DNA from: Camelus dromedarius
Lineage: Eukaryota
DNA: 64,000 bases
Reading direction: 5' to 3'
Assembly: GCF_036321535.1 (NCBI RefSeq)
Contig: NC_087436.1
Span: forward strand, 29,762,001 to 29,826,000
Shown here: one piece after another, positions 482 to 43,999 of the stretch
How positions within the stretch are numbered: position 1 is the first letter of the stretch
Layout: each line of letters starts with the position of its first letter
The notes under the pieces: model-generated
Database searches by the model: none
Told to the model about the DNA's origin: nothing
What the model saw: only the letters and a program-made list of their open reading frames with translations
Position numbers and translations under genes: made by a program

Positions 482-615
482 CTTGAAACGGCAATAAGTG
501 TTAGGAAAAAGGAGATTTCACTTGGGACCATCATACTATAATAACATTTAGCTTTCGATTTGGAATCAAGAATTTTAGTTTAGAACAGTAAACTTTGCTT
601 CTGAGATTTCATGGT
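482..615 (-). pseudogene. Pseudo-exon (134 nt)
   Basis: ttattttttag|ACCATG...TTTCAAG|gtaaat; stops in all frames; fragment LDSKSKAKCYYSMMVPSEISFFLTLIAVS. Confidence 0.5.
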
Positions 616-1557
616 CTAAAAAATAAATGTAAATATATGTTTAAATATTTACATGTATGAGATTATCTTTTAGTTAGTTATAGCCAAATTAAACAAAACA
701 ATCTCTTTTGAAAAAGAAGAAAAAAATCCATCTATTCAGAAAATTAATAACTGAGGCTAAAATTGTTCATAACACAATTCAAATTGATATAGATTTTTGA
801 GTTCACATTTTTTTTTCAAAATTGAAAGAAAAAAAAATCAAGTGAGTCAAATAACACTTCTTTCCCTTGGTCTCTTTTCTTGTCAGTAGGCATATGTTGA
901 CTTCAATGATGCTTAATTTATTTTCCCATTACATAAATTTTTAAATTGTGATATTGGAACAAGAAGTACAAATGACATTTCTGTATATTTATGAAAATTA
1001 CTAAAATTACAAAGTAATTTAGATATATAGATTAAGCTTCTCATTCATATGATTTCTAATTTAGAACCATTTCTTCTATGTCTTAGTTGTTGCTATAATT
1101 AAATGCTAGTGAAATGAAATCTTTAAAAATTCCCACATAACTTTGTAATAAGTTATTGGAACAGAAGTAAAAATGAAAACACATAAAGAATACAAAAGTA
1201 ACATCAGAAAAACAGAATTATTCCTAAAGTTCTGAACTTTCAAAGGTATTGATGAAATATTCAGGGACATTTCAGATTATAGTAAATTATTATTTAAATT
1301 ACTATACATTCAATCTTAGAAAATAAGTGATAGATTATTCAGTAAAGGGAAAAGTAGAGAAGACTACTATCAAGAAAAAAAGAAACTGAAAAGATCCTAG
1401 TATTTTAACATTCAAGAGGCAGTCCTGTCCTTTTTATTGAAAAAAAGATCTTCATTCAACAGTAAAATAAATCATACTCACATAAAAAATGTATCTCAAT
1501 AATTTGAGAGAATAAGTAAACAAAATATGCAATCATTTTCATTTGAAAGATACCCAC

Positions 1558-1729
1558 CTACTGATAAAACACTTCATTTGCAGACTATACACATTAAAGC
1601 AAATTTATTAACATTATATTTCATAATGTTTCACACCAGAAGTTGTAAAGTGTCAAAACAGTTTCTATGTTATTCTAATTAATTCTTCATCATCAGATTG
1701 TCTTTGGTCTGCATTCAGATCCATCCACT
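1558..1729 (-). pseudogene. Pseudo-exon (172 nt)
   Basis: poly-T...gtttatag|AGTGG...AGTAG|gtgggt; (E)WMDLNADQRQSDDEELE*HRNCFDTLQLLV*. Confidence 0.55.
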
Positions 1730-2499
1730 CTATAAACAGTTTACGTAATTAAAAAAAAAAAAAGGGATGTAGGAGAATGTGGTAAGTCTGGTTAAGTCCA
1801 AATATAAGCGTGAATGCAAACATACACAAAGTCACAAGTGTGGTAAGAAATCTACAAAGGACCTCACAAAGTAGATATGCATTTCAACATGTATTAAAAT
1901 AAATTAGAACTAAAAATATTTCAAAGAAAATAAACAAATGATTAATAAATGCACAGTTTTCTCTGTTTCTCCTCACAAAAATGCTCATGAATTGGATTTG
2001 TGAACTAGACTACGTAGGGCTTGTCTGAAATGGCAAAGGAAATGTTTGAATCCAAATGACAACAGTAGTGGCCATATATAAACCTGACAATTAAGAGATC
2101 ATTCAGTGAACAAGACAGTAATCAAACTTGTTTTTAAACAATTGAGGCTTCAGGAAACAAATCAATAATGTTTCCTGTAAATAGAAATGCTGTTATATCG
2201 ATCTGAATACTTTTGGACTGTATCATGATTTCATCAAATTCATTTAATTTTTGTGTGAATTCTTTTGCAGGACATATTCATGGTATGATGTGGGTGTGTT
2301 TGATATAATCTATCAAATTAGACATTCTGTAATACTTTTTAAGTGTATAATTCTTTGCATTAAAATGTGAGAATTCAGATTACAAATCAGTAGGAACATC
2401 TTTACTGATAATGCAAAGGAATCAGAAGGGCAAACCATTTTTAATATGTTAATATAAATATATTTTTAGAAAAACTTTCTGCACTTAAGTGTTTGAATG

Positions 2500-3090
2500 G
2501 TATACACCCTGAGAGTGAGAGCCATTCTTTGCTTTGATAATCTATGGTTTATCCGATAATCTATAACATGGTTTCCTATTCTCCAGTCCTTTTAAATATT
2601 GTTCATTTATCTGGCCATGTTATACTGGTCACAAGAACTGGCACATTACTTTATAGGATTGCTGAGAGTTTCCTACACTCTTTCTTATTTTAAAAGCAAT
2701 ACTTGAATGTTTTACAACTGATATGTTTATTAGTTTATGAAAGTTTTACCCTCTACTTTATAAATAAGATTTAGTATTAGTAGGTATTGAAGTGCAGTGC
2801 ATTTACTGGGATAAATGTAAGATTCTTCTTTTATCTGTTCCTTCTTTATTTTCTTTCATCTGGTAATTAGATAATAACAATTACTAAATTGAAACAATAT
2901 TATAGTCTTAAAAATCCAACTTGCTTATGCCATATTATAATTTTACATACATTGTGGCATTGATTTTAAAATCATTTGGTTAAGAATTCTACATTTCTAT
3001 TCATAGATGAGATCAGACTATAATTTCCTTTCTTATGTTGTCATTGTCTGGGATAGGTATCAAGATAATTCTAGCCTCTTACTCTTTCAC
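2500..3090 (-). mobile_element. Old L1M fragment (ORF2 region), interrupted by a solo LTR and resuming ~3640-3800
   Basis: Resembles antisense L1 ORF2 consensus (tttctattcatagatgagatcagactataatttcctttcttatgttgtcattgtctgg...). Confidence 0.6.
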
Positions 3091-3116
3091 TCTATGAGCT
3101 TGAAAGGATTCGAATT

Positions 3117-3633
3117 TGCTGGGGCCTGGAGAAGGGTGCCCCAAAATGTGCCTCAATGGCATATTGATTAATTGAATTAAAGTTACTTAACAAATGCTGA
3201 TGCAAGAGGGACTCTCTGACCTCCTTTCTGTCTCCCTGACGGCAGGAAATAAATCTCTCATGTTAAAGGTGCACTCCCTGCATCTGGAGGTAGAAGGACA
3301 CACTTACTGCCAGGGATAAGGAATTCAGGCCAAGAGGCCTATATAAACAAACATTGTTACCTCTTTAATTTACTACCCCAAGCCCAAACCCTTTAAATTC
3401 TCCACTAATTGAGCATTTAAAACACACTTTTTTTTTTTTTTTTTTTTTTGTCTTTACAAAGGTACAGTCTCTTTGTCTGAGAAGTATAAAAACTGCTTGC
3501 TTTGGCCACTTCTTAGGTCCCATTTCTATGAGCCCTCCATGAGGATGAATTAAAATGTATTTCTTGTGTCAATTTTATTAGTCCAGCACAAGAACTCAAT
3601 AAGAATAGAGGAGGAAATTTCCCCTCCCTGACA
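3117..3633 (+). mobile_element. ERV1-class solo LTR (MER34/MER39-like)
   Basis: TG...CA termini, 4-bp TSD AATT (3113-3116 / 3634-3637), TATA-like gtataaaa at ~3484, attaaa poly(A)-signal variant at ~3549. Confidence 0.75.
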
Positions 3634-4004
3634 AATTATTTTCCTTGAATCTTCTCTTTCCACTCACCTGGGGTTTTCTTTACAGAAATTTATAATCTGT
3701 TTCTTCCATTGCTTTAATGGTTTTAAGAACATTCCACTCCTTGTCCTCTACCCATTGTGGGTTAGTTTTGACCTTTTTTTCTTTTCTCTGGGAATTTATT
3801 TCATCAGATTTTTTAAACATGCTTGGAAAAAGATATTGATAGGACATTTATGCCTCCCCCCCTCTCTCCTCACTCCCCTTCTCACTCTTTCCTGTTTTCA
3901 TTTTTCTTTACCTTCCTTCTTCCCTTTCTCCCTCATTCCTTCCCTTTTTCTTTATCCTTGACTTAGGGACCAGACTGAGTCAGACAAATTATACCAATAT
4001 TCAC

Positions 4005-4250
4005 CTACACAGTGTGTGTGTATGTGAAGGGTGCATATTTTAAGTATATCTAGCTGGTATATCAGCTTTATTCAGGAGTTTTTGCTCTGATATCCCGTTT
4101 TTCTTTCTCTAGGTTTGTTAGCATTGAAGTTCAAGCAGATGTTTCCTTAACAAAGGCTATCTTCATTGCTGACTTAACTGTCTGCATTTGTATATTTTGT
4201 TTCTTCTATTTTTTTGAAGATTTTCCTTAAATTAATCCTGTATTATCCAT
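4005..4250 (-). pseudogene. Pseudo-exon, K-rich; acceptor degraded or at 4237
   Basis: Donor TGTAG|gtgaat; reads MDNTGLI*GKSSKK*KKQNIQMQTVKSAMKIAFVKETSA*TSMLTNLERKKNGISEQKLLNKADIPARYT*. Confidence 0.4.
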
Positions 4251-4630: not shown

Positions 4631-4706
4631 TGACTGATTTAGAGCAAACTGTGTATAATTTTTAGTGTTCTTCATAGGATCTGTAAGTTCTCAGTACTCT
4701 GATTAC
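4631..4706 (-). pseudogene. Pseudo-exon (76 nt, phase 2->0)
   Basis: attaagtag|GTAATC...CAGTCA|gtaagc; W*SEY*ELTDPMKNTKNYTQFALNQS, in phase with exon 5283-5366. Confidence 0.5.
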
Positions 4707-5282: not shown

Positions 5283-5366
5283 CACGGAGAATCCTCAATT
5301 TTAATTGATGCACTACTATTCACAGCCAGGAACCAAAGATATAAACAGAAATGCTTATCTGTTAAC
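5283..5366 (-). pseudogene. Pseudo-exon (84 nt, phase 2->2, open)
   Basis: ctcagtttattag|GTTAAC...CCGTG|gtaaat; LTDKHFCLYLWFLAVNSSASIKIEDSP. Confidence 0.6.
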
Positions 5367-5599: not shown

Positions 5600-5681
5600 A
5601 CTGTCATTCACCTATTGAAGAACATCTTGTTTCCTTCTAGGTTTCACCCAGTGTTAGTAAATTTAACTTATCTATATGTTC

Positions 5682-5720
<39 letters not shown>

Positions 5721-7040
5721 ATGTTTTCACACTAGTTGTGTAAATACACTGCAGCACAAGGCTGCACCTATGGTGACACTATGAATCTGGCAAGATGTCT
5801 TCTCAAGAGGTTGTAACACATGAAGCCCAATCAGCAATGAATAGGATTTCCTGTTGTCCCACATCCCCACCAGCAATTAATCGGTATGGTCAGTTTTTGG
5901 TGTTCAGCTATTCTAACAGATCAGCAGGGTATCTCCTTCAGTATTTTAATTTGCTTTTCCCAGATGTACAAAGCATATTGCTTTCCAGTAATTCCCAATG
6001 TTGAGCAATTTATACATGCTTATTTCATGTATATAAATTTATATACATATATGTGGATATATATATATATATGTGGATATATACATAGATATATGTATGT
6101 ATATTTATATATAGATAAAATTTAGTAAGGTCATATTGCCCTATTTCATTTTTTTTAATTTGGAGAGTTTATTTTCTTATTGTGGAGTTTTACTAGTTCT
6201 TTGAATATTCTACATGCAAATCTTTCTTCAGATGTGTGTTTTGAAAATTTACTTTCCTAGTCAAGGGCTGGTCTTTCCATTTTTTAAACACTGTCTTTCA
6301 CAGCATAGACAGTTGAAATTTTAATAAAGTCCATATTACCATTTTTTTCATGGATTGCAATTTTGTATTGTATGTGAAAACTAATCATCAACTTTTAACT
6401 CAAGTAGATTTTCTCCTAAACTTCCCACTGTAATTTTTATAGTTTTGCATTTTATATTTAAGGCAACAAATGTTTTTGAGGGAACTTATGTCTAAGGTAC
6501 AAAGTTTGTGTCTTCATTTATTTACTTCCTTTTGGTCATCCATTTGTACCCTCATCATTTGTTGGTGATGACTAAAGACTAGAAGACTAAAGACTAAAAG
6601 TATATCGATTCTGCATTGATGTGCCTTTATTCTTTTGACCAAGGTTAAGTTCTCTGTATTTGCACAGGTCTATGTGGACTTGTAAGTCAAAATCATAAGT
6701 CAAAATGAATTTTAAATCAAAATCAAACCTGTGGACTCTCTATTCTATTCCGTTTATGTGTCTATTCATTTTTAAAATATCACGCTTTCTTGATTCTTGT
6801 AGCTTTATGATAAATGATGATATTAGGACATGCGAGTTCATCAATTTGTTCTTTATCAGTATTGTCTGGACCACTCAGTGTTTAAAATTAGCTTGTTGAT
6901 ATCTACCAAATAACTTGCTGAGATTTTTATTGGGATTGCACTGGATCTTTAAATCAATTTAAGAATTGACATCTGAATAATACTGCGTGCTTCGATCACA
7001 AACAAGGAATATATTTCAATTGATTTATTTTTCTTTCATT
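5600..7040 (-). mobile_element. L1M (MC/ME-type) 3' region fragments, with a TA-rich microsatellite at ~6030-6115
   Basis: Antisense L1 hallmarks (ttgttgatatctaccaaataacttgctgagatttttattgggattgcactggatc...). Confidence 0.7.
5684..5719. repeat. (TG)n microsatellite
   Basis: Perfect tg run of about 18 units. Confidence 0.95.
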
Positions 7041-7509: not shown

Positions 7510-7780
7510 CCTATTACTCTAGAAAATTAATAGCTGAGAAGTTGTCAAAACTTAATGGACTTCACATTTCGATAACAGTGGTGTTATTTTCATGGAAGTC
7601 TCTTTTGTTTGAATTCCATTATGTCTCAGTATGGATAGCAATTTCCTTATTAAATTCTTTTGTGAAATGAGTGGTAAATAAATCTTTATCTATCTGAAAA
7701 GTTCTGATAAATGTCATTTGGTAAATTTTCTTATCAACAGATTCTACAGAGATGATTTGAGAAAAATATATTAGTAATTT
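7510..7780 (-). pseudogene. Pseudo-exon (~270 nt, frame ambiguous)
   Basis: cctttcactttttacag|AAATTAC...AATAGG|gtaatt; frames give KLLIYFSQIISVESVDKKIYQMTFIRTF or LPLISQKNLIRKLLSILRHNGIQTKETSMKITPLLSKCEVH*. Confidence 0.55.
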
Positions 7781-8779: not shown

Positions 8780-10060
8780 AATTAGGGAATCACCAATTAA
8801 AATAACACTCAGATTCCTTTTTTACCTATCAGACTGTTTGAAATGACAAGGAGTGACATTTTTGCAGGTGAGTCTATAAAGCAACACTCTCATTTATTGC
8901 TGGTGAACATGCAAACTCTATTCATACAGCCCTTCTGGAGGAAAGGTTGGAAAAGTCTAACAAAACTACACAGGAACTTACTTTTTGACACAGAAATTCC
9001 ACTTTTAAAAATCTGCCCTAAAATTACACCCCCTAACTGTAAGAAAACATACATGCACTATGTTATTCCTTACAGTATTTTTGTACCTGCAAAATATTAG
9101 AAGCAATCTAAATGCCCATGTATATAAATAAGAATGCTTGAAAAACATATAAATGCCCACATTAAGGAGTATTATGCATTTTTAACAAAGAATAGGAAAG
9201 AAGAACTGATGATTTCCAACATATAAGATGAAAAAAGCCAAATGCAAAAGAACATATACAGTATGCTACACTTCATGTAAGAAATAAGGAGATATAAAAC
9301 AACATGAATCTGCTCATTTGTATGAAAGACACAGAAAAGATAATTCATAAATAATAAGATTGGTTACCTTTAGGAGGTGGATGGGAAAAGACAGAATGAA
9401 AGAGAGAATACGGATGAGAGAAATCTCTCATCCACCAGTGGATGCTTAAATTAATGAGAGGAACTCTGAGGATAAAGAAGATAATTGCATAGTCTCAAAT
9501 ATCTCCCTTAAGATATTTACTAAATACAAAGCGAATATAATATCTTTACAGTAATGAAACCCAGGAGACATTACTTTAATTAAATAATCAAGATTACCAT
9601 CACAAATAATAAAATATCCACATCATATACCCCAGTAGGATGCATGGAGGACATATCACTTTCCAAAGATACATAACTTCAATTTAATCATGAGAGAACA
9701 TTAGGCAAACTTTAATAATGTGCATTCTACAAAACATAAGAAAACTAGTCTTCAAACTTATAAGGTCATTGAAAGTCAAGGAAAGATTATCTGTTACCTA
9801 TGGGAGGATTCTAAGTTGACATGACAACCTAATGCAGCTGGATTCTTGACAGTGTCCTGAAATGAATAAAAGATAGTGGAAAACTGGCAAATTTGAACAA
9901 AGTCTGTAGTTAAGTTTATAACATTGTACCAAATTTAATATCTTGATTTTGAATTATAAGATGTTAATATTAGGGCAAGCTGGGTCAAAGTGTACTGAAG
10001 CTCTCTGTAACATTTTGCATTTTTTTCTGCAAATCTAAAATTATTTTAAAATAATGAACT
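8780..10060 (+). mobile_element. L1ME/L1MC 3'-end fragments
   Basis: cagaaattccacttttaaaaatctgccc...; ggcaagctgggtcaaagtgtactgaagctctctgtaac...aaatctaaaattattttaaaataa, a typical L1MC 3' end. Confidence 0.7.
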
Positions 10061-13390: not shown

Positions 13391-13539
13391 TTATATTTTT
13401 TTCTCCCCTAGGTTATTGAGAGGCAGACTTCTTTTGTTCTCCAAAAGGAAAAGGAACAGGAAATGAAAAGAATTATCTAATTTCCAGCCTGAAAGAGCTA
13501 TCAGTATTTTCAAAGGCTTATATTCTTCCATTTCTTTAC

Positions 13540-13629
13540 CTTGTTGCAATACCTGTAATTTATTTCATGCACTAACAACATTTGAAATAGTGAAGAATAT
13601 TCATCCATAGTTTATTAACCATGTATATT
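13540..13629 (-). pseudogene. Pseudo-exon (90 nt, weak GAG acceptor)
   Basis: tttttttctctctttgag|AATATAC...AACAAG|gtaaag; IYMVNKLWMNILHYFKCC*CMK*ITGIAT or **TMDEYSSLFQMLLVHEINYRYCNK. Confidence 0.5.
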
Positions 13630-14081
13630 CTCAAAGAGAGAAAAAAAAATCACAAAACCAATTTCCAAGTAGGATTATCCAAGATTGTTCTAAAATATGT
13701 CACCTCTTAATTTCTAATTTGTAACAACAGGCAAAAAAATGCACAATAATTATTTTAAACTTTGGTTTTATTCAAATGCTGATGATCGAAACATTTAAAA
13801 AAGCAATGAAACTGTTTTGAAAAATAGAAGTGAACTGGTAATTGTTTTGGGTTTATATGACTTTATGTGAGGTTCTTTTCAATATAGAACATGGCTAAAC
13901 AGAAATTCGCACATACTCTATTTACCTAAAAGATATAGTAATTTGGGAGAAAGCTTAAAATAATCTATCCTTTCATATAATTGTCATTCAACTGGAATAT
14001 TATGCATCCTTAAAAGGATGCATTATTTTTCCAAGGGGTATACATCCACAGAGAGTATTTTAAAGGAATATTTTCAGGAAC

Positions 14082-14520
14082 TGTGGAGGATCTGAGATTA
14101 TACCTTACTATCAAGCATATATGTAGCCTGCCTCATGGACACTGGCAGAAGACACATGACTCCTTGCTCAGAGACTAAGGACTTTATTATTGCAGCAGGG
14201 CACAGTTGCATGGGCCTCATGTTCATGTTGGCTCCTCTTTCCTCAAGACCAATGGAGGTGATGCTGATGGGCTCTAGTGGATGCTGTACACACAGTTTGA
14301 GTTACAGCTGAGGAATGTCAAGTATAGGTAACCCAAATCTTTATTACTTGGGCAGCAAGCAAGCCTGTGTGATGTCTTCTATGGAAGGGAACACTTTTTA
14401 TTATACTCGAAAATAAGAAAATCTGTTCCCTGGTCTATAAACACTGTCTTGGTCTTCCCAGGCTGACCACTACTTAGACATCTTTGAAAAGATGGTATAG
14501 AAAAATTACAACTAGTGCTT
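14082..14520 (-). mobile_element. ERVL LTR (LTR40-like)
   Basis: tgtggaggatctgagattatacc...ctggcagaagacacatgactccttgctcagagactaaggactttatta. Confidence 0.55.
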
Positions 14521-15692
14521 CTACTCATAAAATGCACAGAAACACAAGAGGCCAACTGAGAATTATCTCTCAAGAAATATATTTTCATATTTCTCGCTTG
14601 TTCTTTCATAATGCTGAAAGGCCTAAGAAAGTACTTGTACTCAAGATTCATATGATTTTTCATTACCAAATTGTTTTCCTTTTGGAAACAAAGACTGAAA
14701 AACAGTACAATAACCAAATTCGCTTTGAAGTCCACAAGCAGTTTGTGTTGTATGTCCCTATAATTATGTGTCACCTGTGGCCCCATCTCTTTTACTGAAG
14801 TACCTGGCACTTCTCTATATTCAAACTTGTGTAAGCAAACTGATGTATAAGGTATATAAAACTCCCATCATCAAGTTATTAAGTTATAGTAACAAATAAA
14901 ATGCAATTCAAATATATTAAAATAATGCTTGGGACCCTACATTTCAGCGTCTTTATGATCTAGAGTTCTTCACCTGTACTTACTAACAAATTTCAAGTGT
15001 GGAATATCTTGCTAATAAAACTAAATATCAGTTTTCAGGCTAAATTTTAAAGAAATAATGCTTAAAATTACATCTAACCAATGCAAACTCTGTTTTCATT
15101 AATTTCATTCAGAAGTATAGGATTAATTATGACATATAGATTTATATGGATGTTGATAATGAAAACTTTTTATGTGCTTGAAGGACAACATAACTTAGTA
15201 AATGAATATATTGATTTGCCTTCTTCTTCACCTTCTCAGCCACATTTCCATGAATTCTTCCTTAATCACCATGAATTCTCTCTTATCTAACTATTGTGTC
15301 TAAAATAAATTATCAGCAACATGAACCATTTGCTACATGAGAGCTATATCACATGAGATACATGATGTGAGATACAATTAATAATAAACAGATTCTATCC
15401 TTAAATTCTATAAATCTATGAGGATTTAAATTATAACTATGTCACAGAGCAAGTAACCTATCTCCCTATTAATGATATCCTATAAAAGCAATATATCTGC
15501 ACTAATTAATTATACCTGAAGTAACAACTATGGCTTAATTAAGTGTACCATTCCTAATAAATGAAATCTTAAAATAATTGGAAGTTTCTGTCTAGAAGCT
15601 GTGATAATTATTGTCATTAGACAGGGAATCAAACCTGGCCACACTAAGCAAAACCGATTCACAAATGACACTGAACCTGAGATTACCTAGGA

Positions 15693-15915
15693 CAGTCGTT
15701 CACAAACCTTTCTGTGAAGGGTCAGCCACTAAGTATATTAGACAATGTGTATCACAGAGTCTCTGTCACAGTTACTCAAATCTGTCATTGTAGCACATAA
15801 GTAGCAACAGACAGCATGTAAAAATAATGATGTCACTCTATTCCAATAAAGCTTTATTTACCAAAACAGGTCATGGGCCTGCTTAGCCCTGTTGTTTGCA
15901 GTTTGATGACCTTCA
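15693..15915 (+). mobile_element. MER58A (hAT-Charlie) DNA transposon
   Basis: aaacctttctgtgaagggtcag...gtctctgtcacagttactcaa...ttccaataaagctttattta. Confidence 0.75.
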
Positions 15916-16270
15916 ATGTAGGATAACGTCCTTACTATATTTACTACATTTCTGTATTTTCTAGTACTGTAATCTAGGTTCTTGTCCTTATCTCTCAACT
16001 TTGATGCTTAAGTTTCAAAAATTCTTGTCATATATAATGTTTTAATAAATTGCACTGAAATATATTTAGCACACATTTTTCTTTGTCTTAAAATTTAGCA
16101 GTTTTGAGATATTACATTCAGTTACACAGAGCTTTAGACACTATGAAAAGGCATCTTGCTTTTGTAAATAAAAGATAAGGGTGGCCACAATGGAACTGCA
16201 CAATATGACTCATGATTCATTCAAAAAGAAGTAGAGATTGAGTACAGGAGTAATAGAGTGCATGAATTAC

Positions 16271-16314
16271 TTCCTTAATGTAAGCCCCCATGTCATTTTA
16301 TGAACCTGTAATTT
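16271..16314 (-). pseudogene. Pseudo-exon (44 nt, phase 0->2, open)
   Basis: ctttctatcctaaag|AAATTAC...AGGAA|gtaatt; KLQVHKMTWGLTLR. Confidence 0.5.
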
Positions 16315-16447
16315 CTTTAGGATAGAAAGTTTGGAAATAGATAAGACGTAAATTTTACAACTTCTTATCTGATATATGAATGTCTTTTTATGCCACACCA
16401 AGTGTCTGCTCTCATTCAGTGTCTACTGATCATTGTTTTCCACTTAC

Positions 16448-16503
16448 AATACTAAGAATCCACTGTGCTGTGTCTTCTTTTCTGTTTTTTTGTATCTCAC
16501 GCA
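16448..16503 (-). pseudogene. Pseudo-exon (56 nt, phase 1->0, open)
   Basis: gtatattag|TGCGTG...AGTATT|gtaagt; (V)REIQKNRKEDTAQWILSI. Confidence 0.6.
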
Positions 16504-16860
16504 CTAATATACACTCAAAATTAATATCCATTGACAGTAAAGCAAGTAAGATTAATCCAGGAAGTATTATGAAAAAAATGGTGTGAAATGTATCTACCAA
16601 GTGACAAATCTTTCTCCCGTAGGATTTACATGGTTACTATAGTCAGTCTTTCTCCCTTCCGCATCATTATTTCCACTTTTCTGTCATTACTATCCTCATA
16701 TGAAGATGTTTTTATCTTCCACATTTCAAAAAATAAAACTTCTCCTTATCTCACATGTTCCACAAGTACTGAACCATTTCTTAGTTCTCCTTCAGAGCAA
16801 AACTTCTTTTAAAAAGCTTTTTAGAAAGTACAACGCCTAACAGAAGCAAGAGAAGGCATC

Positions 16861-17326
16861 TGTGTTAGGCTGAATGATAGTCTCCAAAGATACCCAGGTC
16901 ATAGCCCCTGCAATCAGTAAATGATACACTATATGGTAAAGGAGACTTGCAGATGTGATTAGGTTAAACATCTTGTGATGGGAGATGATCATAAATTATT
17001 TTGGTGAGTCTTAAACACAAATGTAAGTGTCATAAGAGTGATGGAGAGGAATATTTGACACTGACAACAGAAGGTGATGTGAGGATTGGAAGTGGAGAGA
17101 GATTTGAAGATGGTATACTGCTGCCTTGAAGATGCAGGAGGGGATCATAAGTCAAGAAATGCAGCCTACAAGTTGGAAAAGGCAAGGGGTAGTTTCTCCC
17201 TGGAGTCTCTGAAGGGAGCATGGTCCTGCTGACACCTTGGTGGAACTGATTTTGTATTTTTGACTTCCATATTAAAAAAAAAATAAGTTTGCATTAGTCT
17301 ATTACAACAGCTATAGGAAACTAACA
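16861..17326 (+). mobile_element. MLT1D/C-like MaLR LTR
   Basis: tgtgttaggctgaat...ttgcagatgtgattaggttaa...cagctataggaaactaaca. Confidence 0.85.
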
Positions 17327-17699
17327 TAACACTTTTTCTTATTCATAGATGTAAAGGGAGGTCTTTTAACATTTCACATTATAGCATAAACCACTTATAA
17401 AACTTTCAAAAGATATTTTTTATCAGGTTAATAACGTGCTTTTTAATTCTAGTTTAATAAAAGTATATATATCATGAATTTTAACAAAGTTATTCTGAAT
17501 CTATGTATGTTAAGATATACATTTTATGTATCTGATTGAGATGAGATTTTTCTCATTTAAACTGAGAATGTAGGAAAAACACACTTTTAAATTAGGTCTC
17601 AGTTATAAAAATTAGATTGATTATTACCTTGGATTTATGACATGCTTTTTTCCTATGCCCATTCAAGGTCAGCTTTTAAATGTAGTTGATTAATTATTT

Positions 17700-18320
17700 A
17701 ACAGTATAAGGGGCACCCAGAACGCACCATTTCACGTGAAAGCTAAAACCTGGAGAAGAACCACATGTAACCATGTAGTTCCCTGCTCCCATGCCAGCCA
17801 CTGTGCTGTCACTGAACAACAACTTCTTTCCACCGGCTGAAATCTAAGATCAGCCTCAGCCTCCCATCTATTGTTTTCTGTGGGGCTTCTAGAGGCCTTA
17901 CCTTGTACCTGCGTGTTTCTGAAGTGGGCCACACACAAGGAGACTTGTACGTATTTAGCCTTCTTCTCTGTGGTTCTCTGTGGTTACTGCCTTCTTCGAA
18001 ATTAGTCCCATGAGTTCCGTACACATTGGGTGCCTCAGACTCTGATCTCTCCATTTCCTCAGCATGGGAAAACTTCCCTTTCTGCTTACGCACTCTTTTT
18101 CACATCAGTATTTGGGAAGTACTGTTAGGAAAAAAAAAAATTAGAAATGAAATTTATCTGTAGGCTTATTTCGTCTTAATAATAAACCACCTCAAGCTCT
18201 GTATGGGTTGGTTATTCTCCAATGCCTTCAAACAATTTTGCCCAGCTTTTATAGCAGTCTTCAGTGTGTGGCCTTGTTCACTGCGAGCTACTTTATCAGG
18301 GCCTGAACCTGAAACCCTCT
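17700..18320 (-). mobile_element. L1M (MC/MD) 5' region
   Basis: ttgcccagcttttatagcagtcttcagtg...gagctactttatcagggcctgaacc resembles the antisense L1MC 5' terminus. Confidence 0.5.
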
Positions 18321-19002
18321 AATACGTATTTAAATGGATAGTTGTTAACAGTTTATGTTGCATTCCTTGTTTTTCTAATGAAAGTTTTTAGGTTTTCTAT
18401 TTTGCCATAATTCTGAAATTAAGGACCCATTTATCTTATTTTAATCATTTTCTTATCCATAATTTTAATGTTCTTTTAACAGCTGCCGATAACTTATACA
18501 TGTGCACTACTCACACTTCCCAAAGTCTTAGCAGTATTTCAAATAATGACAACTTCCTCCTCTTCAAAACATTTTCCTTTATGGATTTTCTTAAAAATAC
18601 ACCAAACTGGAATTCTGCTTACCACTCTCAATTTTTTATTCTCAGCTTAATTTTGACAGGTTTTTCTTGGCTTATTTTGTATTAATATCTACTGTCTGCC
18701 TAAACTTTTGGTTGGGTGATTTACCGAAAAAAACATTATTTTAAATGCCTATATGTTAATAACTCCCACATTTTTATTCCCACCTCTAACTTTTCTCAAA
18801 GTTTCAGACTCTGAAGTGATGTTTACTTACCACTTTTCATTTCTCTCACGTAAGAAACTAATAGCTCTGTTCTTTCTTTCTCCAAAGCATATCTCAAATG
18901 CATTTGCTTCCTTCTATTCCCATTTCCACTGTTACTATCACGGTACTATCATCATCATATCTCCATTCAAGACTGGTACAATACATCCATTCCTTTTCCC
19001 TA

Positions 19003-19442
19003 AGATTGATTCTTCAAAGAGTAATGGCAAAGAGAACAAGAGCCAGATGGTAGTTAAAAGGGTAAAGATACATTTTATTCAGAAATTATAGCAGTAGGGT
19101 AATAGAGGCTTCAGTATAGAAATGAGCTCACTCCAAATACAACAAAGAAAAGCGAGACTTTATAGCCAAAGAGCAAAGTGGGAGGTCAGTAGATAGAAAA
19201 ATATTACAAAGAGACATCAAGGGTAGGGGGATTCTTGCCAAACCAACAGAATTCTTGCTGCCGGTTGGCCAGAGAGATCAGATAGCAAAGGTGATCAGAT
19301 ACCAGTGGTGAGGACATTCTCTCTAAACTGGTTTAGTAGGAAGCTTGCAAAAACCAGGTTATGCTGGCCTGGCAAGGGTGGGGCTAAAAAGCCTAATGGA
19401 GAAGAGGGTAGAGAAGTCTGGTCGAAGAGAAAGTCTTTACCA
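19003..19442 (-). mobile_element. ERV1 LTR (MER31/MER67-like)
   Basis: attttattcag...actttatagccaaagagcaaagtgggaggtcagtagatagaaaa...ttctctctaaactggtttagtaggaagcttgc. Confidence 0.6.
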
Positions 19443-21169
19443 GTAACTACAGTATTTTTTAAATTGAAAGTTAGGCTCGTTCACATTCTCCAATTACTTT
19501 CTATTGGATGAATTATGTTAAAATCCAGTTTAAATATATATATTTCTCCTTTCATTTTCTGTCATTTCTGCTCTCTGAAAGTTGTAATTTTGCTTCACAA
19601 ACTTATTATCTGAGAAGAGCGCTATTGGATCTTCCTTTTACTTTAACCCTTTCTGAATTGCTCTGTTTAGGTATGTATCTTGCACACAGAATGAATCAGA
19701 TTCTGCTTCATTAGCCAATCTGAAAATACTGAATGATGAGCTATGTCCATTTATATCTCTGATATACTTAGTAAGCTGGTTTTCAGTTCTGTCATGATAT
19801 TTTTTTACAATATAAATTACACGTACAAAATCTTACATTATATTTACATTTTGGAGTTTTAGGGGGTATTTATAATTGTTTCTGTATCTATTCTTGCTTA
19901 TCATATAGTCTTATATAATAAAATATATTAGTCTTCCAATGTATTTTAATATTCTCTATTGTTTTTTTCAATGAATGATAATGTTCTCTAGTAACCTCTT
20001 TATTCTCCCTCCTTTTTGCCTAACATTTTTATTTACTTACTATCCTTTCAATGGCTGTTAGATATTGCCAAAACATTAATATTCTTCTTTCATTTATCTT
20101 TCCCTTTTCTTCAATTTTTTGTGTATTGTAATATCTCTACCTTTTTTAGTATATTTAGCAGTAGCATAATTTAGTCTTATTGCAAAATTTAACATATGTA
20201 ATAATTATCTACAGGTTTCATGCTATGCTTGTCTGAACTGAATGTTGTCAGTAACTAGGAAATTGCTCAGAAAGTGATCAAAGGAAAAGCATTTCCAAAG
20301 TTCCCAAATGTCCCCGATGCTCTGTATTCCTTAGATATGATGCACAGTTTAAATGAATGGCATATAATTTGGCTACCTTGTTCTTTCTTTCATAATCATT
20401 AAAACAATTCTTCATTACCTTCCTGTGTAAAATGTTGCTCTCAAGAAGACTGTTGCCAATATTAATTTTCTACCTTTTACTGACTTTCTGAAATAATTTA
20501 TATTATCGTATTATTTGAATTTTCATCTTTAGAAAGAAGAAACTATTACATATTCATTGCTCTCCTTTGCCTACATTCTATATTCAGGATATTCTTCCCA
20601 ATTTGTTTAATCTCTCCATTTCTGGTTTGCATATTCACTTGTATTTTTTTCTCTATATCTTTTGCTATGTTTCACATAATTTCTACTGATTTGATTTGAT
20701 GTTCCTTTTAAATGTCTTTAACTGAAAATTGTCTTCCTTCTCTTACCTCTACTCTTCTCACCCTCTACCAGACTACTGCTTTCTTTCCTTCTGTCTCACT
20801 CTCTTTCTGATTCTCTGATTAATTTTTATTTTGTTCCCAGTGTTTTTCTTCAGAGTAGATTTTTTTTTCCCTTAGGGTTGAGTAATTTTGGTGATTTCTG
20901 GTTGTGGTCTATGAAAGGTCTTGTAGGACCTTTCAATACTTCCCTTTATCTTAATTTTACCTTTGCCATCAGCCCTGAGCAGTGCTGCCCCATTCTACTA
21001 AGGATTTGGCTAATTACTATATTTTGAGCTTTATATTGATTACTTGTCATCTACATTTGTTGATGATTTTACCCTGGGTTTTTCCATTATGTTTCCAAAC
21101 AACTCTGCTTGGTTTTCCCAGTTGATCCAGCCATATGTTAAGTAAAAAGATATATATAAATACCGATAC

Positions 21170-21230
21170 CATAGGATGTTGTTGAAAGTCTCTCCAGTTT
21201 ATTTTATTTAATTTTCTCATTAACAATAAC
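21170..21230 (-). pseudogene. Pseudo-exon (61 nt, phase 0->1; alternative acceptor at 21237)
   Basis: ttttgttgttgcagagcatag|GTTATT...CCTATG|gtatcg; VIVNEKIK*NKLERLSTTSY. Confidence 0.5.
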
Positions 21231-21707
21231 CTATGCTCTGCAACAACAAAATAATCTCACTTTCAGGCAGTACTCAGCAAAATATAGTGCAGGTAATATC
21301 TCAGTATACTTGACGTTATCTTTTACATGAAAATAAGTAATTGTGAAACACTTCTGGTTGGCCGTTGCCTTAGTATACTATTTTTTTTTTTAGATGAAGT
21401 AGTAAAAACTAAATAAAATATGGCTTTTCTCAGAGAAAATATTTATCTCTAATGCAGTAGGAAAATAGTATCTATAGACTGAATGAATTTATCTCCCTTT
21501 AGGCTTAAATAAGAAATGGGTCTTATTTCTCATTGGCTTGTTTATATCCTAGGTTCTGATTCATATAATTACCCACTTTTATTGGCTCCCATATTATATC
21601 TTACTTTGATACTCTAGAAGCAAAAATATTTTTACAGTCTCTATTCAGCATTTACTGTGATTCCTTATTATGTTATTTGCTTAGCACAGATGTGATGCTG
21701 ATTGTAC

Positions 21708-21893
21708 TTCTCATTTTTTCATGACAAAAGAAGCAGAAATAAGATCTCTGGGAATTGGCTCTATGATATGGTTAATTGACACTAATATTAGCCTTGTGTT
21801 CTTCATCAATAAGATGGGAATATAGTAAAAACAGCAAGCCCCAACTGCATTCATGTGAAAAAAAAGTTGTTTTATGACTGCTTCTTGAAGCAT
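21708..21893 (-). pseudogene. Pseudo-exon (186 nt, phase 0->0)
   Basis: gtttcttataccag|ATGCTT...GAGAA|gtacaa; MLQEAVIKQLFFHMNAVGACCFYYIPILLMKNTRLILVSINHIIEPIPRDLISASFVMKK*E (ORF track 21711..21893). Confidence 0.6.
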
Positions 21894-22370: not shown

Positions 22371-22422
22371 GAGCACATAATTGGAAAAAGATGTTTACTT
22401 TTTGATAGGCAATTTTTTTAAC
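22371..22422 (-). pseudogene. Pseudo-exon (52 nt, phase 2->0)
   Basis: tcattttcatag|GTTAAA...GTGCTC|gtgagt; LKKLPIKK*TSFSNYVL. Confidence 0.65.
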
Positions 22423-22790: not shown

Positions 22791-22836
22791 ATTATTCGAC
22801 TGGCAAGTCTCATTTCTTTGAGTGTCTCAGTGAAGA
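22791..22836 (-). pseudogene. Pseudo-exon (46 nt, phase 1->2, open)
   Basis: atttttgacag|TCTTCA...GAATAAT|gtaaga; FTETLKEMRLASRI(M). Confidence 0.65.
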
Positions 22837-23759: not shown

Positions 23760-25270
23760 AGAGAAAAAGCTGCCTCTCGATATTAGACAGAAGAGTTACA
23801 GTAAGAATGAGGGTAGACTAGAATAAACCTTGTAGTATTTGATTAGAACCAGAGATGCCAGTTTGCACTTATGTGCTTTTGTTTTTCTTAACATAGAAAG
23901 ACAGAAACGGATATAAAAAGAAACAGACACGCAGACATGTTTATGTGTGTGTATATACATATACGTTTCTTAGCTTTAACAACTGAGAAGACCTAGAAGC
24001 AGTAAAACTCTAATAGCAATGAGCATTCCTGTACTCTGGATTCACAGTATTCTCCAATTAAAGGAACCATGACCCCTTGAAGCAATAAGTGATTCCAATG
24101 CTGGAGAAAAGAAGAACAAGATGAGTCTGGACAATTTTTTTTTTTTTTGTATTTTATTCTTTCTGGGGTGGGGAGAGGTAATTAGTTTCATTTATGTATT
24201 TATTTTAATGGAGGTACTGGGGATTGAACCCAGGACCTCATGCATGCTAGGCATGTGCTCTAGTACTAAGCTATACCTTCCCCTCTGGAGAAATTTTTGA
24301 TATAAAAAAAGAAGATCTCAAGAAATAAAACTGACATGCCAAAGAATATTGGAGCTAACTCAAAGTTGCTTTCAGTAGCCAAAATTGAAAGAATTTGAGC
24401 AGGAAAAAAAAGATGGTAATATATTACTAAGGATAAGTAAACCAAATACACATGGATTCATACTGATATAAATTAATAATGAATAAATAAATGAAAGGGG
24501 AAAAGAGAAAGTTCTCCCATATAGTAGAGTTCTAATTAATAAATGTAGAAGAAATAATGGAAATAGAAACTCCATACTCAGAAAATACCATATCATTGTT
24601 TCAGGAAAGAGTGCTAAAATTAGTGGGTGATATTATGATGAGAAACAGGATATTTACATAGTCTCCTAATTATCTCCCAACAAAATACTTATTTAAAAAT
24701 TATCACTTTAAAATAGAGAAATCTGATGGACAGCATCTTAACCAAGTAATTAGAGTTAACATCACCAGAAATGGGACATGGTGCTGTCATGTGCCCCCTG
24801 ATACAATGCACTGAGAAAGGCAAGCTCAGCACTGGGGTACTTTTGTTATCCCATACATATCTGAATTTAAGCATAAGGAAACATCAGAAAATCTCAAATT
24901 TCAGAATAATCTACAAAATAACATGTTAGTACTCTTCAAAAGTATCAAGGTCATGAAAGACAAAGAAAAACTGAGGAACTGCTGTAGAATAAAAAAGACA
25001 AAAGAAATGTAGCAATTAAATACAGTAGATGACCTGGTTTTGATCCTGGTCAAAGATCATTAGTTGAAGCATTAACAAAATAATTGCATAAGGAATGTAG
25101 ATTAATATCTAATACCTTATCAATTCTCTAATTTTAATAACTTCATGCTATATATGATGTTAATATTTGGGGAAGCTGGGTGAAGACTATATAGGAATTT
25201 TTTGCAATAGTTTTACAAATTTTTGCAAGTCTGAAATTATTTCAAGATAAAAATTGTAAAATAATTTAAA
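23760..25270 (+). mobile_element. L1MC3/4-type 3' region, interrupted by a SINE
   Basis: gagaaatctgatggacagcatcttaaccaagtaattagagttaacatcacc...gggaagctgggtgaagactatatagg...tctgaaattatttcaag. Confidence 0.8.
24135..24283 (-). mobile_element. Camelid tRNA-derived SINE (Vic-1-like)
   Basis: Reverse complement ggggaaggtatagcttagtactagagcacatgcctagcatgcatgaggtcctgggttcaatccccagtacctcca, with A/B-box-like motifs and an A-rich tail; imperfect TSD tctgga(c/ga)aattttt. Confidence 0.85.
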
Positions 25271-27180: not shown

Positions 27181-27259
27181 CATTTGCTGTAACAAATCAA
27201 ATTTTTTAAAAGCTGTCTTCAAAGGAATCACCAAACAAGCACTTTTATGCCATTTATTG
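27181..27259 (-). pseudogene. Pseudo-exon (79 nt)
   Basis: atgttctctattag|CAATAA...CAAATG|gtatca; NKWHKSACLVIPLKTAFKKFDLLQQM (open frame) or INGIKVLVW*FL*RQLLKNLICYSK. Confidence 0.45.
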
Positions 27260-27538: not shown

Positions 27539-27613
27539 TTAGAAGTGCTGTACAAGTGAAGGATTCTGTGTTAATATTTCTTGGTATGTCAGCCAATTTC
27601 TTCTTTAATCATT
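27539..27613 (-). pseudogene. Pseudo-exon (75 nt)
   Basis: Strong acceptor ttgctatttttcgtttttctag|AATGAT...TTCTAA|gtaata; *LKKKLADIPRNINTESFTCTALL. Confidence 0.5.
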
Positions 27614-29169: not shown

Positions 29170-29490
29170 CCAGTGGGTCAACAAATTATTTATTACTCCT
29201 ACAAATGGCAATGTAGTACCTATTTTTGGGCTTTGTTGGCCTTATTGTAGTCTCTGTCACAACTACTCAACTCTCTGATGTAGGGCAAAAAGTAGCCACA
29301 GACAATATGTAAATGAATGAGCTTGGCTATTATAAAATTAAGTTAGTTTCATATAATTTTTAGATGTCATGTAATATTATGCTTCTGTTGACTTTTCTTC
29401 AATCATTTAAAAATGTAAAAATCAATCTCAGCTTGCAGGCTATATAAAAACAATTAGTACAGATTCAGTGGATAAGCTGCAGTCCTGTGC
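29170..29490 (+). mobile_element. MER58B (hAT-Charlie)
   Basis: gtctctgtcacaactactcaactctc...gtagccacagacaatatgtaaatgaatgagc...caatcatttaaaaatgtaaaaa. Confidence 0.75.
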
Positions 29491-32701: not shown

Positions 32702-32841
32702 GTGGATTTTCTTCTTATGTAAATCGGTAAACTTAAGAGTATTTTTTCTCATGCTCAAAGCCCGAAGGTAAATATTTTCGATTAAGAATGTGAAGCAACT
32801 GAAGTGACAGTTTGGTTCAGAGCTGCATTGTAGAAGTACAG
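32702..32841 (-). pseudogene. Pseudo-exon (140 nt, phase 2->1; alternative acceptor ~32798)
   Basis: gttttataatag|CTGTAC...ATCCAC|gtataa; CTSTMQL*TKLSLQLLHILNRKYLPSGFEHEKKYS*VYRFT*EENP. Confidence 0.5.
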
Positions 32842-34211: not shown

Positions 34212-34322
34212 CTGACAAGAATAAAAAAACACTGTCTTTTAAAAGGAAAAGATGAATTTTTATAAATTATATTAAAATCCTCTCCACCTTGAATGATTGA
34301 AAAATTAACTTTCAAACTGTAT
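34212..34322 (-). pseudogene. Pseudo-exon (111 nt, phase 2->2, open)
   Basis: attttaatgtccag|ATACAG...TGTCAG|gtgaga; YSLKVNFSIIQGGEDFNIIYKNSSFPFKRQCFFILV. Confidence 0.6.
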
Positions 34323-36010: not shown

Positions 36011-36133
36011 CTTTGGGTCTGCTCTCCCCTACGTCTTATTTGTAATAAATTCATCATCTTCCTTTTGAGATGCATACACCAATTTAATAGTTTCAAAATC
36101 TCTAGTGTTCCCTCATTTCAAAGAGATTTTGAC
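36011..36133 (-). pseudogene. Pseudo-exon (123 nt, symmetric)
   Basis: ttattgtttaaaacag|GTCAAA...CCAAAG|gtataa; SKSL*NEGTLEILKLLNWCMHLKRKMMNLLQIRRRGEQTQ. Confidence 0.55.
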
Positions 36134-40938: not shown

Positions 40939-42233
40939 TGCCTATATAGGTAAATCTTACAGATTCTCAAAACTGAATAAAAGAGAAAATGCATTTCATG
41001 TGTGTGCCTGGTAATTTAAATGATTATGAATTAAATTGGCAATATTTGGATTTGTGCACAGAATATCAGTTTGCCTCTGAATAAAAACTTCTATATGAAT
41101 TCATTTTTAAAATAAAAATATTTTTCTAAAAAGAGGATTCTTGAAATAAGGAAATTAAAGTAATTTATAATTTAATTCCATATTTTAGGTCCATATAATG
41201 TAATTAAAGAAATACATATTTCATTATTAAGTAAAAAATCAAGATAGAATGTATAGTCAAAATTACTTATTTTAAAATTAATATATTAAACAAATAAGAT
41301 CTAAGAGCAGAAATGAATGAACATTTTTGAATATGTAAAAATTATTTTCTGGGTGTTTCTGGACCATGTTTTAGCAGAGCAGGAGCTCACTACTGACCCA
41401 CCTCCTACTTGAACAATATGCTAACGTGATCTGCAAGTGGGTTGTAATTTCACCCAAAACATATTACAATAAGGAATGCATTTACTCTGACAGGGTTTGA
41501 CCTACATATGAATTTGTAAAAGAGACAATCATTGTCCTTCTTGAACTTAATAAGTGTCTTTCTGAATTCACATGCATACTTACCTGACCAATCCTCCTTA
41601 CTCTCTATTTCAAGTTATCTGGTAAAATTAATTTTAAATATAATTGATGGGTTGTATGTTCTAAATAAATGTGTATGTTACAAATGCAAATGCATTTATG
41701 TATTTTACAGCTATGCAGTTTCAATAACTGACTTATTTCTATCTGCTTTTTATTCACTTTTTAAAATTAGGCTACTGATGCATATTAGAATTTAATTACA
41801 CCAATTAGTACTGCCACATCAGACATATGATGTGCCTTCAATTAAGAAGTACCTAATGGGTATTAGTACAATTTAGCTTCATAATTAAAGTTCTAAGAAC
41901 AGCACAAATTAAACATTATGATTACAAAACATTAAAAATCTACTAGGAAAATTAAAGCTGAATATTTCAGCTTCTCCTTTTTGGTTGATTTTTAAAAAGA
42001 AATTCAAGATTATATAAAACACAGTATTAATATTATTGAAAAATTCTTAACTAAAGAGAGAAAGTTATGCATACACGTAAATACGTATGTGCATATATAA
42101 TGATTAAATATTTAAGAAAGTATGAAACCTAACATCCATGTCATCCGATGGACGTTAAAGGTTATCATTTCGGGGTTTTGTTTTGTTTGGTTGGCTTCTG
42201 GTTTTCCTTTTTTATACAGAAATATTTGGTTTC

Positions 42234-42645
42234 TGTGGCAGCCACTTAGAATTCCTGCTTCAGGGAACATAGATGACAGGCAGCCCCAGCTGCTACCCAT
42301 ATGATTGTATGACTGATTGCACTGAGGCCCTGTTGACTAGGCTGTTCTGGGACAACGGAGAGGGTCCCAGTTCCCGAAACATTCTTAGGAATATTGGGAT
42401 TCTTCCTGCAGAAGACTTGAGTTGAAGACTCCTCTTTGGTCTGGCCAAACCTAACTAAAACGGGGCTGTAGGCTGAGAATCTTTTGTCCCAATTCCTTCC
42501 TTCACCCTCTCCTTCCGTAAGGATCAGAACCGCATTGCTACACTTAATACATGCTTCCTCTCCTTAATGCTTAACAGGAATTTCCCCTCATGAATCTTTT
42601 GTGCAGCTAATAAATTCTTGGTTTCATAAAATGTGACCTAATAAT
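42234..42645 (+). mobile_element. ERVL LTR16-like LTR
   Basis: tgtggcagccac...gacaggcagccccagctgct...ttttgtcccaattccttccttc. Confidence 0.55.
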
Positions 42646-43334
42646 CTATCTGATATGAAACATATACATGTATATATTTGATAACGTCTGTTATAATTAG
42701 AATACTTATTTTTCTAGAGGGAGAGAATTTTTAAAAACTAAGAATATTTTCCTATTTGGATTATTTTGAATTTTTTTCGAAAGAAATAGAATACTATAGT
42801 AAATTCCAAATTGCCTACAAATAGGTAATAGCAATTCAGAGAAACTCTAGTACTGTATTCAAAATTAAGATTATGGTAATTTTTATCTTCCTACTTGCTA
42901 GGAATTATATTTAGGGTAAAAATACATTTTCTCCACAACGTATATAACAAAAATGAATGTAGATTACATTAAGACACTAATCTCATCACCTCCACTAATT
43001 TGTGAAAAATAGTATCAAAATGATAGACTGTATATTTTAGCATTATCTTAATCCTAATAGAAATCCTATAAAATTATCATACTTTATTACAGATAAGAAA
43101 CTGTGTTAAATAGAGTTTTGAGTGCCAGTTGAAGCACTATTTTCTTGAGTCCATGTCTACATGTACACTTATCGGGAGCACTTTACTTGGTGGTTATGCA
43201 TACATACGTATTATATATGTTTGTATATGTCATGAAAATTGTCTGTAGAATTTTAATGACTTGGGTAGAAAAAAACTGTGGAAAGTATACAGAGGCACCA
43301 TTTTTTTTTTCATTAATTTATTTAGCTCCCCAAA

Positions 43335-43530
43335 TTATAGCCCACAAGGCAATGCTACCTTTACCAAATGTTTTAAATAAAGCTTTTTTAGAACACAGGC
43401 ACATTCATTTTTCTAGGCCTGCTTTGGGGCTAAAACAGTAAAAATAAGTAGTTGCAAGAGATAGTATGGCTCCTGAAGCCTAAAACATTTTCTATTTGGC
43501 ACTTTACAGAAAAAGTCTGCCCATCTCTTA
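43335..43530 (-). mobile_element. MER58A (hAT-Charlie)
   Basis: aaataaagcttttttagaacacaggcaca...aagcctaaaacattttctatttggcactttacagaaaaagtctgcc. Confidence 0.7.
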
Positions 43531-43697
43531 CCAGCTTCAGAAAACAGACAACATAGACAATGATGATCAGGTACTAAAATAAAGCACAGCTCTTAAAACT
43601 AAAAACCCAGGTAAACTGGGCCAAAATGAATTGGTTGCTCGTAACAGAAAATTTTTGCTGAGAAAAAATAAAACTGTAAATCAATAAATAATGTTAC

Positions 43698-43999
43698 CTT
43701 TTGCTTTCAGGAAGTTCTTGCAGATCAATTTATCTGAAGCAACATTCTGCTCACCTAGGTAGGTAAACGGCTCCCTTAACAAACAATGACTTAGCAGAAC
43801 TTACTTCCCGACCTTCGCCTCGTTCTATATAGCAGTCCTCTTCCTAAAGATACAAGTTCTCCGGTTAAGGAGCTGGGACCCGCGTGGTGCCCGGCACCCG
43901 AAGCAGAACCGAGGGGCCCCGCGCTCACCTGCAGCCCGGGGTTCTCGGACCCGCTTCCCTCCTGGAGACGCAGCCTGGCTGAAGCCCCGCGTCTTCCGT
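43698..43999 (-). pseudogene. Three closely spaced 5' exons (43929-43999, 43805-43843, 43698-43733) with 85- and 71-nt introns
   Basis: Donors CAG|gtgagc, GAA|gtaagt, AAG|gtaaca; acceptors tatctttag|, ttgcttcag|; (T)EDAGLQPGCVSRREAGPRTPGCRKRTAI*NEAKVGK*IDLQELPESK. Confidence 0.55.

Follow-up and report, generated by a model that had tools for sequence, protein, structure and literature searches.

Does the minus strand of this AT-rich region hold the remains of a lost multi-exon protein gene? The window (the whole stretch of 64,000 nucleotides of the Camelus dromedarius genome analysed here) lies in a gene-poor, AT-rich desert with ABHD18 on one side and a PCDH10-like gene on the other, equivalent to human 4q28.3. 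Synteny with human chr3/21 was rejected, LINC02465 was discarded as the human equivalent after PCDH10 was placed, and family searches for SLC34A2, SCLT1 and JADE1 placed none of them on the window's contig. Rfam found a single tRNA-like SINE head and nothing else. A preliminary description proposed that 21 short segments form the exons of a dead gene. Our tentative answer, given somewhat less than even odds, is that part of the chain is the relic of a protein gene that was lost very long ago. The segments, in the order of the putative transcript, are:

43929..43999, minus strand: segment 1, antisense, in DNA derived from an intron of the parent gene described below; donor scoring highest in the region; no coding exon of an ancestral gene
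43805..43843, minus strand: segment 2, strong donor, acceptor straddling the edge of the inserted block
43698..43733, minus strand: segment 3, AG..GT borders
36011..36133, minus strand: candidate exon, AG..GT borders, weak sites
34212..34322, minus strand: candidate exon, strong donor
32702..32841, minus strand: candidate exon, weak donor
27539..27613, minus strand: candidate exon, weak donor
27181..27259, minus strand: candidate exon, weak sites
22791..22836, minus strand: candidate exon, first member of a seven-segment run
22371..22422, minus strand: candidate exon, member of the run
21708..21893, minus strand: member of the run, open over 60 codons, searches without a long homologue
21170..21230, minus strand: candidate exon, member of the run
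16448..16503, minus strand: member of the run, very weak acceptor
16271..16314, minus strand: candidate exon, member of the run
13540..13629, minus strand: candidate exon, last member of the run
7510..7780, minus strand: longest segment, single copy in its own genome, neutral divergence in other mammals, where the acceptor region is retained
5283..5366, minus strand: candidate exon, AG..GT borders
4631..4706, minus strand: candidate exon, AG..GT borders
4005..4250, minus strand: doubtful segment, no AG acceptor, adjoining old L1-like sequence
1558..1729, minus strand: candidate exon, 5-8 stops in each frame
482..615, minus strand: candidate exon, AG..GT borders

The description of these segments as splice-bounded holds for nearly all of them: a GT donor follows all 21, an AG acceptor precedes 19, and both are present at 19 of the 20 internal segments. 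The segment at 43929-43999, which lacks an acceptor, is the proposed first exon. The other exception, 4005-4250, is preceded by AA, which leaves it without an acceptor; it is probably not an exon. None of the segments overlaps repeats common to about 140 kb of other loci.

Could the chain consist of pseudo-exons picked by chance from AT-rich desert, with an inserted RasGEF_N fragment as the sole real feature? We regard this as a serious but doubtful alternative. Splice-signal counts are equal on both strands, as it would predict: donors scoring at least 2 number 86 on the minus strand and 89 on the plus strand, and candidate exon pairs 161 and 198, respectively, so that the minus strand shows no excess. 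The donors of segments 1 and 2 come close to consensus (9.1 and 3.8 bits, within the top 2% of GT sites), and the internal splice sites of the chain are mostly weak. In unbiased exon scans and chains, which likewise speak for chance, the strand of the segments shows no excess over five control strands. The segments overlap just 3 of the 30 best candidates of the unbiased scan, however: a simple score would have picked others, and this weakens selection as the whole explanation. Several weak exon-like signals that agree in direction also count against chance. The AG-free zone upstream of acceptors is longer than in random segments (P=0.044), the DNA past the donors is T-rich (P=0.033), and the segments are A-rich against T-rich flanks (T/A contrast, P=0.0035). 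Of the 11 statistics in this set, 4 fall under 0.05; branch-point motifs and GC do not. Such features, hardly of a kind that would be selected deliberately, lean towards a fossil.

Do the segments read as coding sequence? The three frames of the whole join (2192 nt, about 730 codons) contain 44, 43 and 57 stops, where about 50 per frame are expected from a background of 6.8%, and none is open. Over 19 segments, lowest-frame stops number 20, while random AG..GT segments have 23+-4 (P 0.26-0.27). The run from 22836 to 13540 has only 5 stops in 178 codons, with P=0.045 taken by itself and P=0.126 once all possible runs of seven segments are considered. The phase series given earlier for this run (1-2-0-0-1-0-2-2) is arithmetically right but carries little weight: any chain carries a frame onward, so the stop count is what matters. 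The remark that many stops lie one transition away from CAA, CAG or CGA is empty, being true of all three stop codons. Segment GC (31.4%) equals background; for comparison, ABHD18 exon cores stand at 45% versus 33%, and simulated AT-rich fossils at 32-33%. This absence of stop depletion and of a GC rise again agrees with chance.

Composition signals lean the other way, although the segments were hand-picked and tests on them are therefore not independent. They are purine- and GAA-rich (P 0.01-0.05), with a GAA density of 0.032 compared with 0.033 in ABHD18 exons. Under an AT-rich protein model, their amino-acid log-odds reaches 23.6, where random AG..GT segments give -1.5+-10.4 (P=0.013), and codon-level versions of the score give P 0.007-0.019; a generic amino-acid table gives P 0.10-0.25, both tables being rough. 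Simulated dead genes score 27+-9 after 0.2 substitutions per site and 15+-9 after 0.3, so that the observed value agrees with 0.2-0.3 substitutions per site of decay since the death of the gene. We relied on stop counts in the decay simulation, where the codon-level score was dropped as inflated by CpG codons. At 0.05 substitutions per site, none of the 150 simulated runs reached 20 lowest-frame stops; at 0.1, 2% did.

The preliminary description had the chain start in the only CpG island of the window. The island is real and the only one, but it is not the gene's own promoter. Its features are:

43851..45864, plus strand: CpG island of about 2 kb, descended from 3.7 kb of a RasGEF_N gene, copied with introns and since decayed
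44544..44637, plus strand: copied parent exon encoding a coiled-coil peptide, donor GT lost
44732..44828, plus strand: copied parent exon with a 1-nt deletion
45015..45194, plus strand: copied parent exon with several indels
45443..45520, plus strand: 3' part of the copied RasGEF_N exon, following the internal deletion, frameshifted

The parent locus lies on another chromosome, at the end of a contig, and one of its exons matches RasGEF_N (E 6.9e-7). By its peptides and its position this gene is probably KNDC1. Exons and introns of island and parent are collinear, with 68-86% identity in blocks, and only the middle part of the gene was copied. Where the parent is open, the copy is disabled by a lost donor, 1-nt deletions and the internal loss of some 1.4 kb. 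Compared with the parent across 171 nt in two exons, the copy shows pN 0.12 and pS 0.32. Judged by this alignment, the island can be identified as an old DNA-level copy of the mid-part of a RasGEF_N gene. As segment 1 lies antisense inside the intron DNA of this inserted fragment, the island is not an ancestral promoter.

Might the island instead have created a transcript that never coded for protein? On this account, which we hold to be unlikely, the imported island fires antisense and cryptic AG and GT sites of the desert are used as exons of a long non-coding RNA (lncRNA). Island GC is 63%, and CpG o/e is 0.60 overall, compared with 0.38 in the parent, rising to 0.86 at the left end beside segment 1; the island keeps more CpGs than the parent, as would an unmethylated orphan island. 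The near-consensus donors of segments 1 and 2, and the segment 2 acceptor at the insertion edge, would also suit such a transcript. The weakness of most internal sites does not, and 21 exons in 44 kb would be a high number for a newly arisen lncRNA. In RNA runs, 5-42% of the words are present, about their genome-wide share (the letter count of the run divided by about 2,030 million, the DNA-run figure on our reading of the column, with small-share rows left aside). These shares track letter counts and so give no evidence of transcription, a coverage that the chance explanation predicts. The same explanation gains from the lack, over 1-43.6 kb, of the strand skew expected of long germline transcription (T-A 0.004, G-C -0.008). 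The island lies 0.74 Mb upstream of PCDH10. In human, by interpolated position, the putative equivalent place has an intergenic CpG cluster among those reported in PMC5408416, and a spliced lncRNA reported in PMC10725455 lies about 130 kb nearer PCDH10; both would favour a non-coding transcript.

Is there an intact relative elsewhere? For the two of the 21 segments searched for protein homologues, a search that relatives under about 35% identity would escape, the intact orthologue envisaged earlier did not appear. Among 1.84 billion proteins searched without a word index, there were 4 matches, none of them a long relative, and searches restricted to longer proteins were blank. Three candidates were rejected as relatives: P0002 and P0003 are tandem-repeat proteins, one of them a fish galectin-domain protein, and P0016, a bacterial enzyme, is unrelated and had been clustered with a fragment in error. 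Pfam gave 4 weak, unrelated matches, all under cut-off, for 11 segment readings, 5 island ORFs and 30 further readings; PDB gave nothing below E=1. In the ESM Atlas, P0001 had no usable match and the best value for the 60-codon ORF (0.81) was at chance level. Within the dromedary genome, 7400-7900 has one DNA match, which leaves no working paralogue for that one segment.

DNA of other mammals does match 7510-7780. Its ORF fragments bear their own frameshifts and a stop, and identity is 40/60 in frame, 30/47 out of frame and 8/12 in the intron, with pS 0.23 and pN 0.16 over 69 nt. This one segment diverges neutrally, as chance would also have it, and such divergence makes any loss an old one. 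The DNA around these fragments was absent from metagenome, viral and prokaryote collections. Recent camelid loss of a gene intact in other placental mammals, one of the two timings first proposed, would account for the few stops of the seven-segment run but is very improbable and, for 7510-7780, largely refuted, as the stop count is too high in simulations (which exclude decay of 0.1 or less), searches with two segments found no long protein and the other mammals are themselves broken there.

We return to the ancient fossil as the preferred reading. Some minus-strand segments downstream of the island would be exons of an AT-rich protein gene, long dead, whose death preceded the split of camelids from the matching mammals, probably on or before the placental stem; the relic would since have decayed neutrally, with no protein made. 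The inserted island may have broken up the original 5' end or taken its place, and transcription running antisense across the relic could now start from it, in which case segment 1, and probably segments 2 and 3, would be newer exons. Against this fossil stand the lack of stop depletion, GC at background, the missing strand excess and the want of a protein relative or family, and the coding evidence is weak. A 535-nt run without frameshift also seems unlikely in a gene dead so long, because of the indels seen in the other-mammal DNA. An extended version strikes us as quite improbable: an undescribed multi-exon protein gene, still intact in marsupials or reptiles but unannotated there or diverged too far, would have been lost from the PCDH10 desert on the placental stem. 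A KNDC1 gene-body piece at its 5' end would have become a CpG-island promoter, from which a spliced non-coding RNA would still run across the old exons in several mammals.

A real fossil would represent a placental gene loss absent from the one catalogue examined and would imply a vertebrate protein as yet unknown. Should the chain be due to chance, it shows how little AG..GT borders and phase arithmetic weigh by themselves when the DNA is AT-rich. The firmer, smaller result, and the new one, is the origin of the CpG island as a copied piece of the body of a RasGEF_N gene, a test case for promoter birth by duplication.

How does the locus compare with known systems? The island resembles a duplicated (unprocessed) partial pseudogene of KNDC1, with collinear exons and introns, frameshifts, a lost donor and a parent at a chromosome end; only 3.7 kb of this parent, probably KNDC1, was copied, onto another chromosome. 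With GC above 50% and CpG o/e of about 0.6 or more, 43851-45864 falls among candidate orphan islands. It is intergenic like those described in PMC8286816 (here with GC 63% and CpG o/e 0.60-0.86), but its origin is traceable to a CpG-poorer gene body and its promoter role is putative. The supplements of PMC5644071 gave no match to the terms searched, and none of the 4 human chr4 lncRNA and 7 human chr4 pseudogene rows in file 4 of PMC5577775 lies near 132-133 Mb. That work (Hezroni et al. 2017, PMC5577775) describes lncRNAs derived from lost protein genes, such as XIST, JPX and FTX. In contrast to its cases, the relic is a candidate seen in DNA, its syntenic living gene and its transcript being hypothetical, and the promoter it adopted would have come from a duplicated gene body instead of a transposon. 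As in the ancient unitary pseudogene and lncRNA cases of the same paper, a multi-exon relic would persist in place with little or no similarity to a living protein, its promoter adopted later as in the scenario of Fig. 7b there.

The orphan CpG island at the right-hand end of the 21 exon-like minus-strand segments (482-615 to 43929-43999) consists of a gene fragment brought in from elsewhere. A peptide from the island's plus strand matched a second locus, at 83.37 Mb on contig C8 near the contig end, and aligning the DNA reveals that 43851-45864 was copied from a 3.7 kb stretch there, four exons with their introns, at 68-86% identity in blocks. The copy is disabled by a deletion of about 1.4 kb, one lost donor and frameshifts. 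A parent exon matches RasGEF_N, and from its peptides we take the parent to be KNDC1. Across two exons, copy and parent differ with pN 0.12 and pS 0.32, which suggests that the copy is tens of millions of years old. Its CpG observed/expected ratio is 0.60 (0.86 at the left end) versus 0.38 in the parent, as would be expected of an island escaping germline methylation. The preliminary description placed the beginning of a fossil gene in this island. However, the first segment (43929-43999) lies antisense within DNA derived from a parent intron, its strong donor sits in a short sequence absent from the parent, and the second segment's acceptor spans the insertion edge; this 5' end therefore cannot start an ancient coding gene.

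The window occupies G000:C1:29,762,001-29,826,000 of the 2.3 Gb genome. Family searches placed on the same contig the albumin cluster (72 Mb), an annexin (37.19 Mb), ABHD18 (32.35 Mb) and protocadherins (29.07 and 25.79 Mb). From the human gene order, the protocadherin at 29.07 Mb is presumably PCDH10 and the region human 4q27-q28 reversed; the island lies 0.74 Mb upstream of this putative PCDH10. The albumin cluster keeps what we take to be its human orientation, whereas ANXA5, ABHD18, PCDH10 and PCDH7 are reversed, implying an inversion on C1. An intronless annexin retrocopy, four annexin repeats in 900 bases with stops, was seen at G000:C14:53.711-53.712 Mb. Scaling from human positions (factor about 1.57), we assume an equivalent near hg19 chr4 132.9 Mb. 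PMC5408416 reports an intergenic CpG cluster at chr4 132,896,266-132,897,018 (hg19) and PMC10725455 gives intronic SNPs of the lncRNA RP11-789C2.1 at 133.02-133.03 Mb; interpolation would make the window orthologous to this region.

The splice borders first proposed hold with two exceptions: GT follows all 21 segments and AG precedes 19, and one of the two exceptions is 4005-4250, which lacks an acceptor and may belong to an L1-like remnant. Repeats noticed in the window include the following.

24160-24305, minus strand: tRNA-Ala-headed SINE, copy 1 (tRNA head 24209-24280, called as a tRNA by ARAGORN and Rfam; such an element is consistent with a mammalian genome)
47893-48006: tRNA-Ala-headed SINE, copy 2
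about 2300-4250 and 6170-6970, minus strand: L1-like remnants, common to flanking loci, with peptides that we take to resemble L1 ORF2
9931-10054 / 25130-25250: short old interspersed repeat pair (72-80% alike, the range over three pairs)
15758-15822 / 29249-29313: second such pair
43445-43513 / 59490-59559: third such pair

Further right, 52000-60000 shows strong G-over-C (0.17) and A-over-T skew on the plus strand and a 200-nt direct repeat (54000-54194 / 58512-58711, 70%). It looks like an old LTR-type element; six-frame Pfam searches of it gave no match.

Part of the chain may, we tentatively propose, be what remains of a protein gene that was lost on the placental stem or before it. Chance resemblance, with no real exon chain, is a serious though somewhat doubtful alternative. 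By a rough splice matrix, the sites are mostly modest, and the two strands are equally rich in donors of at least 2 bits (86 versus 89) and candidate pairs (161 versus 198). The 730-codon spliced join carries 44, 43 and 57 stops in its three frames; lowest-frame stops in the 19 segments outside the island number 20, versus 23+-4 by chance. The best seven-segment run (22791-22836 through 13540-13629) spans 178 codons, of which 5 are stops (P=0.045; 0.126 when all such runs are counted). That stops lie one transition from CAA, CAG or CGA, a point made earlier, is true of every stop codon. Segment GC (31.4%) equals background; in ABHD18 exon cores of the same region it is 45% versus 33%. No strand skew appears across 1-43.6 kb. 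In two unbiased exon scans, exon-like pieces were no more abundant on the segment strand than on five control strands, and just 3 of the top 30 candidates overlap the segments. These blanks are not strong, since the scans used crude models whose top ranks are dominated by old repeats.

Other signals favour real exons. Purines make up 53.8% of the segments, versus 50% (P 0.025-0.053), and GAA is enriched in them (P 0.010-0.018). With an AT-rich amino-acid table they outscore random AG..GT segments at the codon level (P 0.007-0.019) and the residue level (23.6 versus -1.5+-10.4, P=0.013); a generic table gives no such excess (P 0.10-0.25). Simulated dead genes score 49+-10, 27+-9 and 15+-9 residue-wise at 0.1, 0.2 and 0.3 substitutions per site. 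Among 11 further statistics four fall below 0.05: AG-free zone (P 0.044), T-rich DNA after donors (P 0.033) and exon-to-flank contrasts in T/A (P 0.0035) and purines (P 0.034).

A lncRNA that never coded is the less likely explanation of such exons. The words of 13400-23000 occur in thirteen RNA or probable RNA runs at shares of 5-42%, and a single reproductive-system study supplied the top four runs. In the eight top runs these shares do not exceed the run's letter count over genome size, and the seven segments supply only 325 of 9,571 words, so this is no evidence of transcription.

Large protein searches covered two of the 21 segments, 7510-7780 and 21708-21893. The single-copy, neutral 7510-7780 (90 codons, X at stops), searched against 1.84 billion proteins at E<=0.001, matched two short unnamed ORFs (75 and 41 residues, about 60% identity) and two repeat proteins, the latter unrelated. 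The resulting profile matched none of 1,466 longer candidates and 6 of 79 near-length ones, all short unnamed ORFs; for the 60-codon ORF of 21708-21893, 12 longer candidates gave no match. No name came from Pfam, PDB or the ESM Atlas either. A clustering error in the protein collection puts P0016, a 407-residue bacterial enzyme, among the 55-residue mammalian ORF fragments that make up P0011's cluster. The short ORFs, separated from one another by frameshifts, look like gene calls on other mammals' matching DNA, judging by a DNA identity of 83%. Identity to the window is 40/60 in the proposed frame, 30/47 out of frame and 8/12 in the intron, and over 69 nt readable in two frames 3 differences are silent and 9 change the residue (pS 0.23, pN 0.16); on these small numbers, this one segment diverges neutrally. 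Together with the stop simulation, this contradicts recent loss, which is thus very improbable; of the loss originally suggested, in this lineage or earlier, the older date is the one that we tentatively retain.

Searches of the open-licence literature returned no paper that treats this locus as the site of a lost gene or that places a copy of KNDC1 at 4q28, and the locus is absent from the human chromosome 4 rows of file 4 of Hezroni et al., a survey of lncRNAs derived from lost protein genes (PMC5577775). Under the ancient-loss reading, the gene would have died on the placental stem or earlier and its 5' end would have gained the island afterwards. This would match scenario b of that survey, in which a relic adopts a promoter later (PMC5577775).
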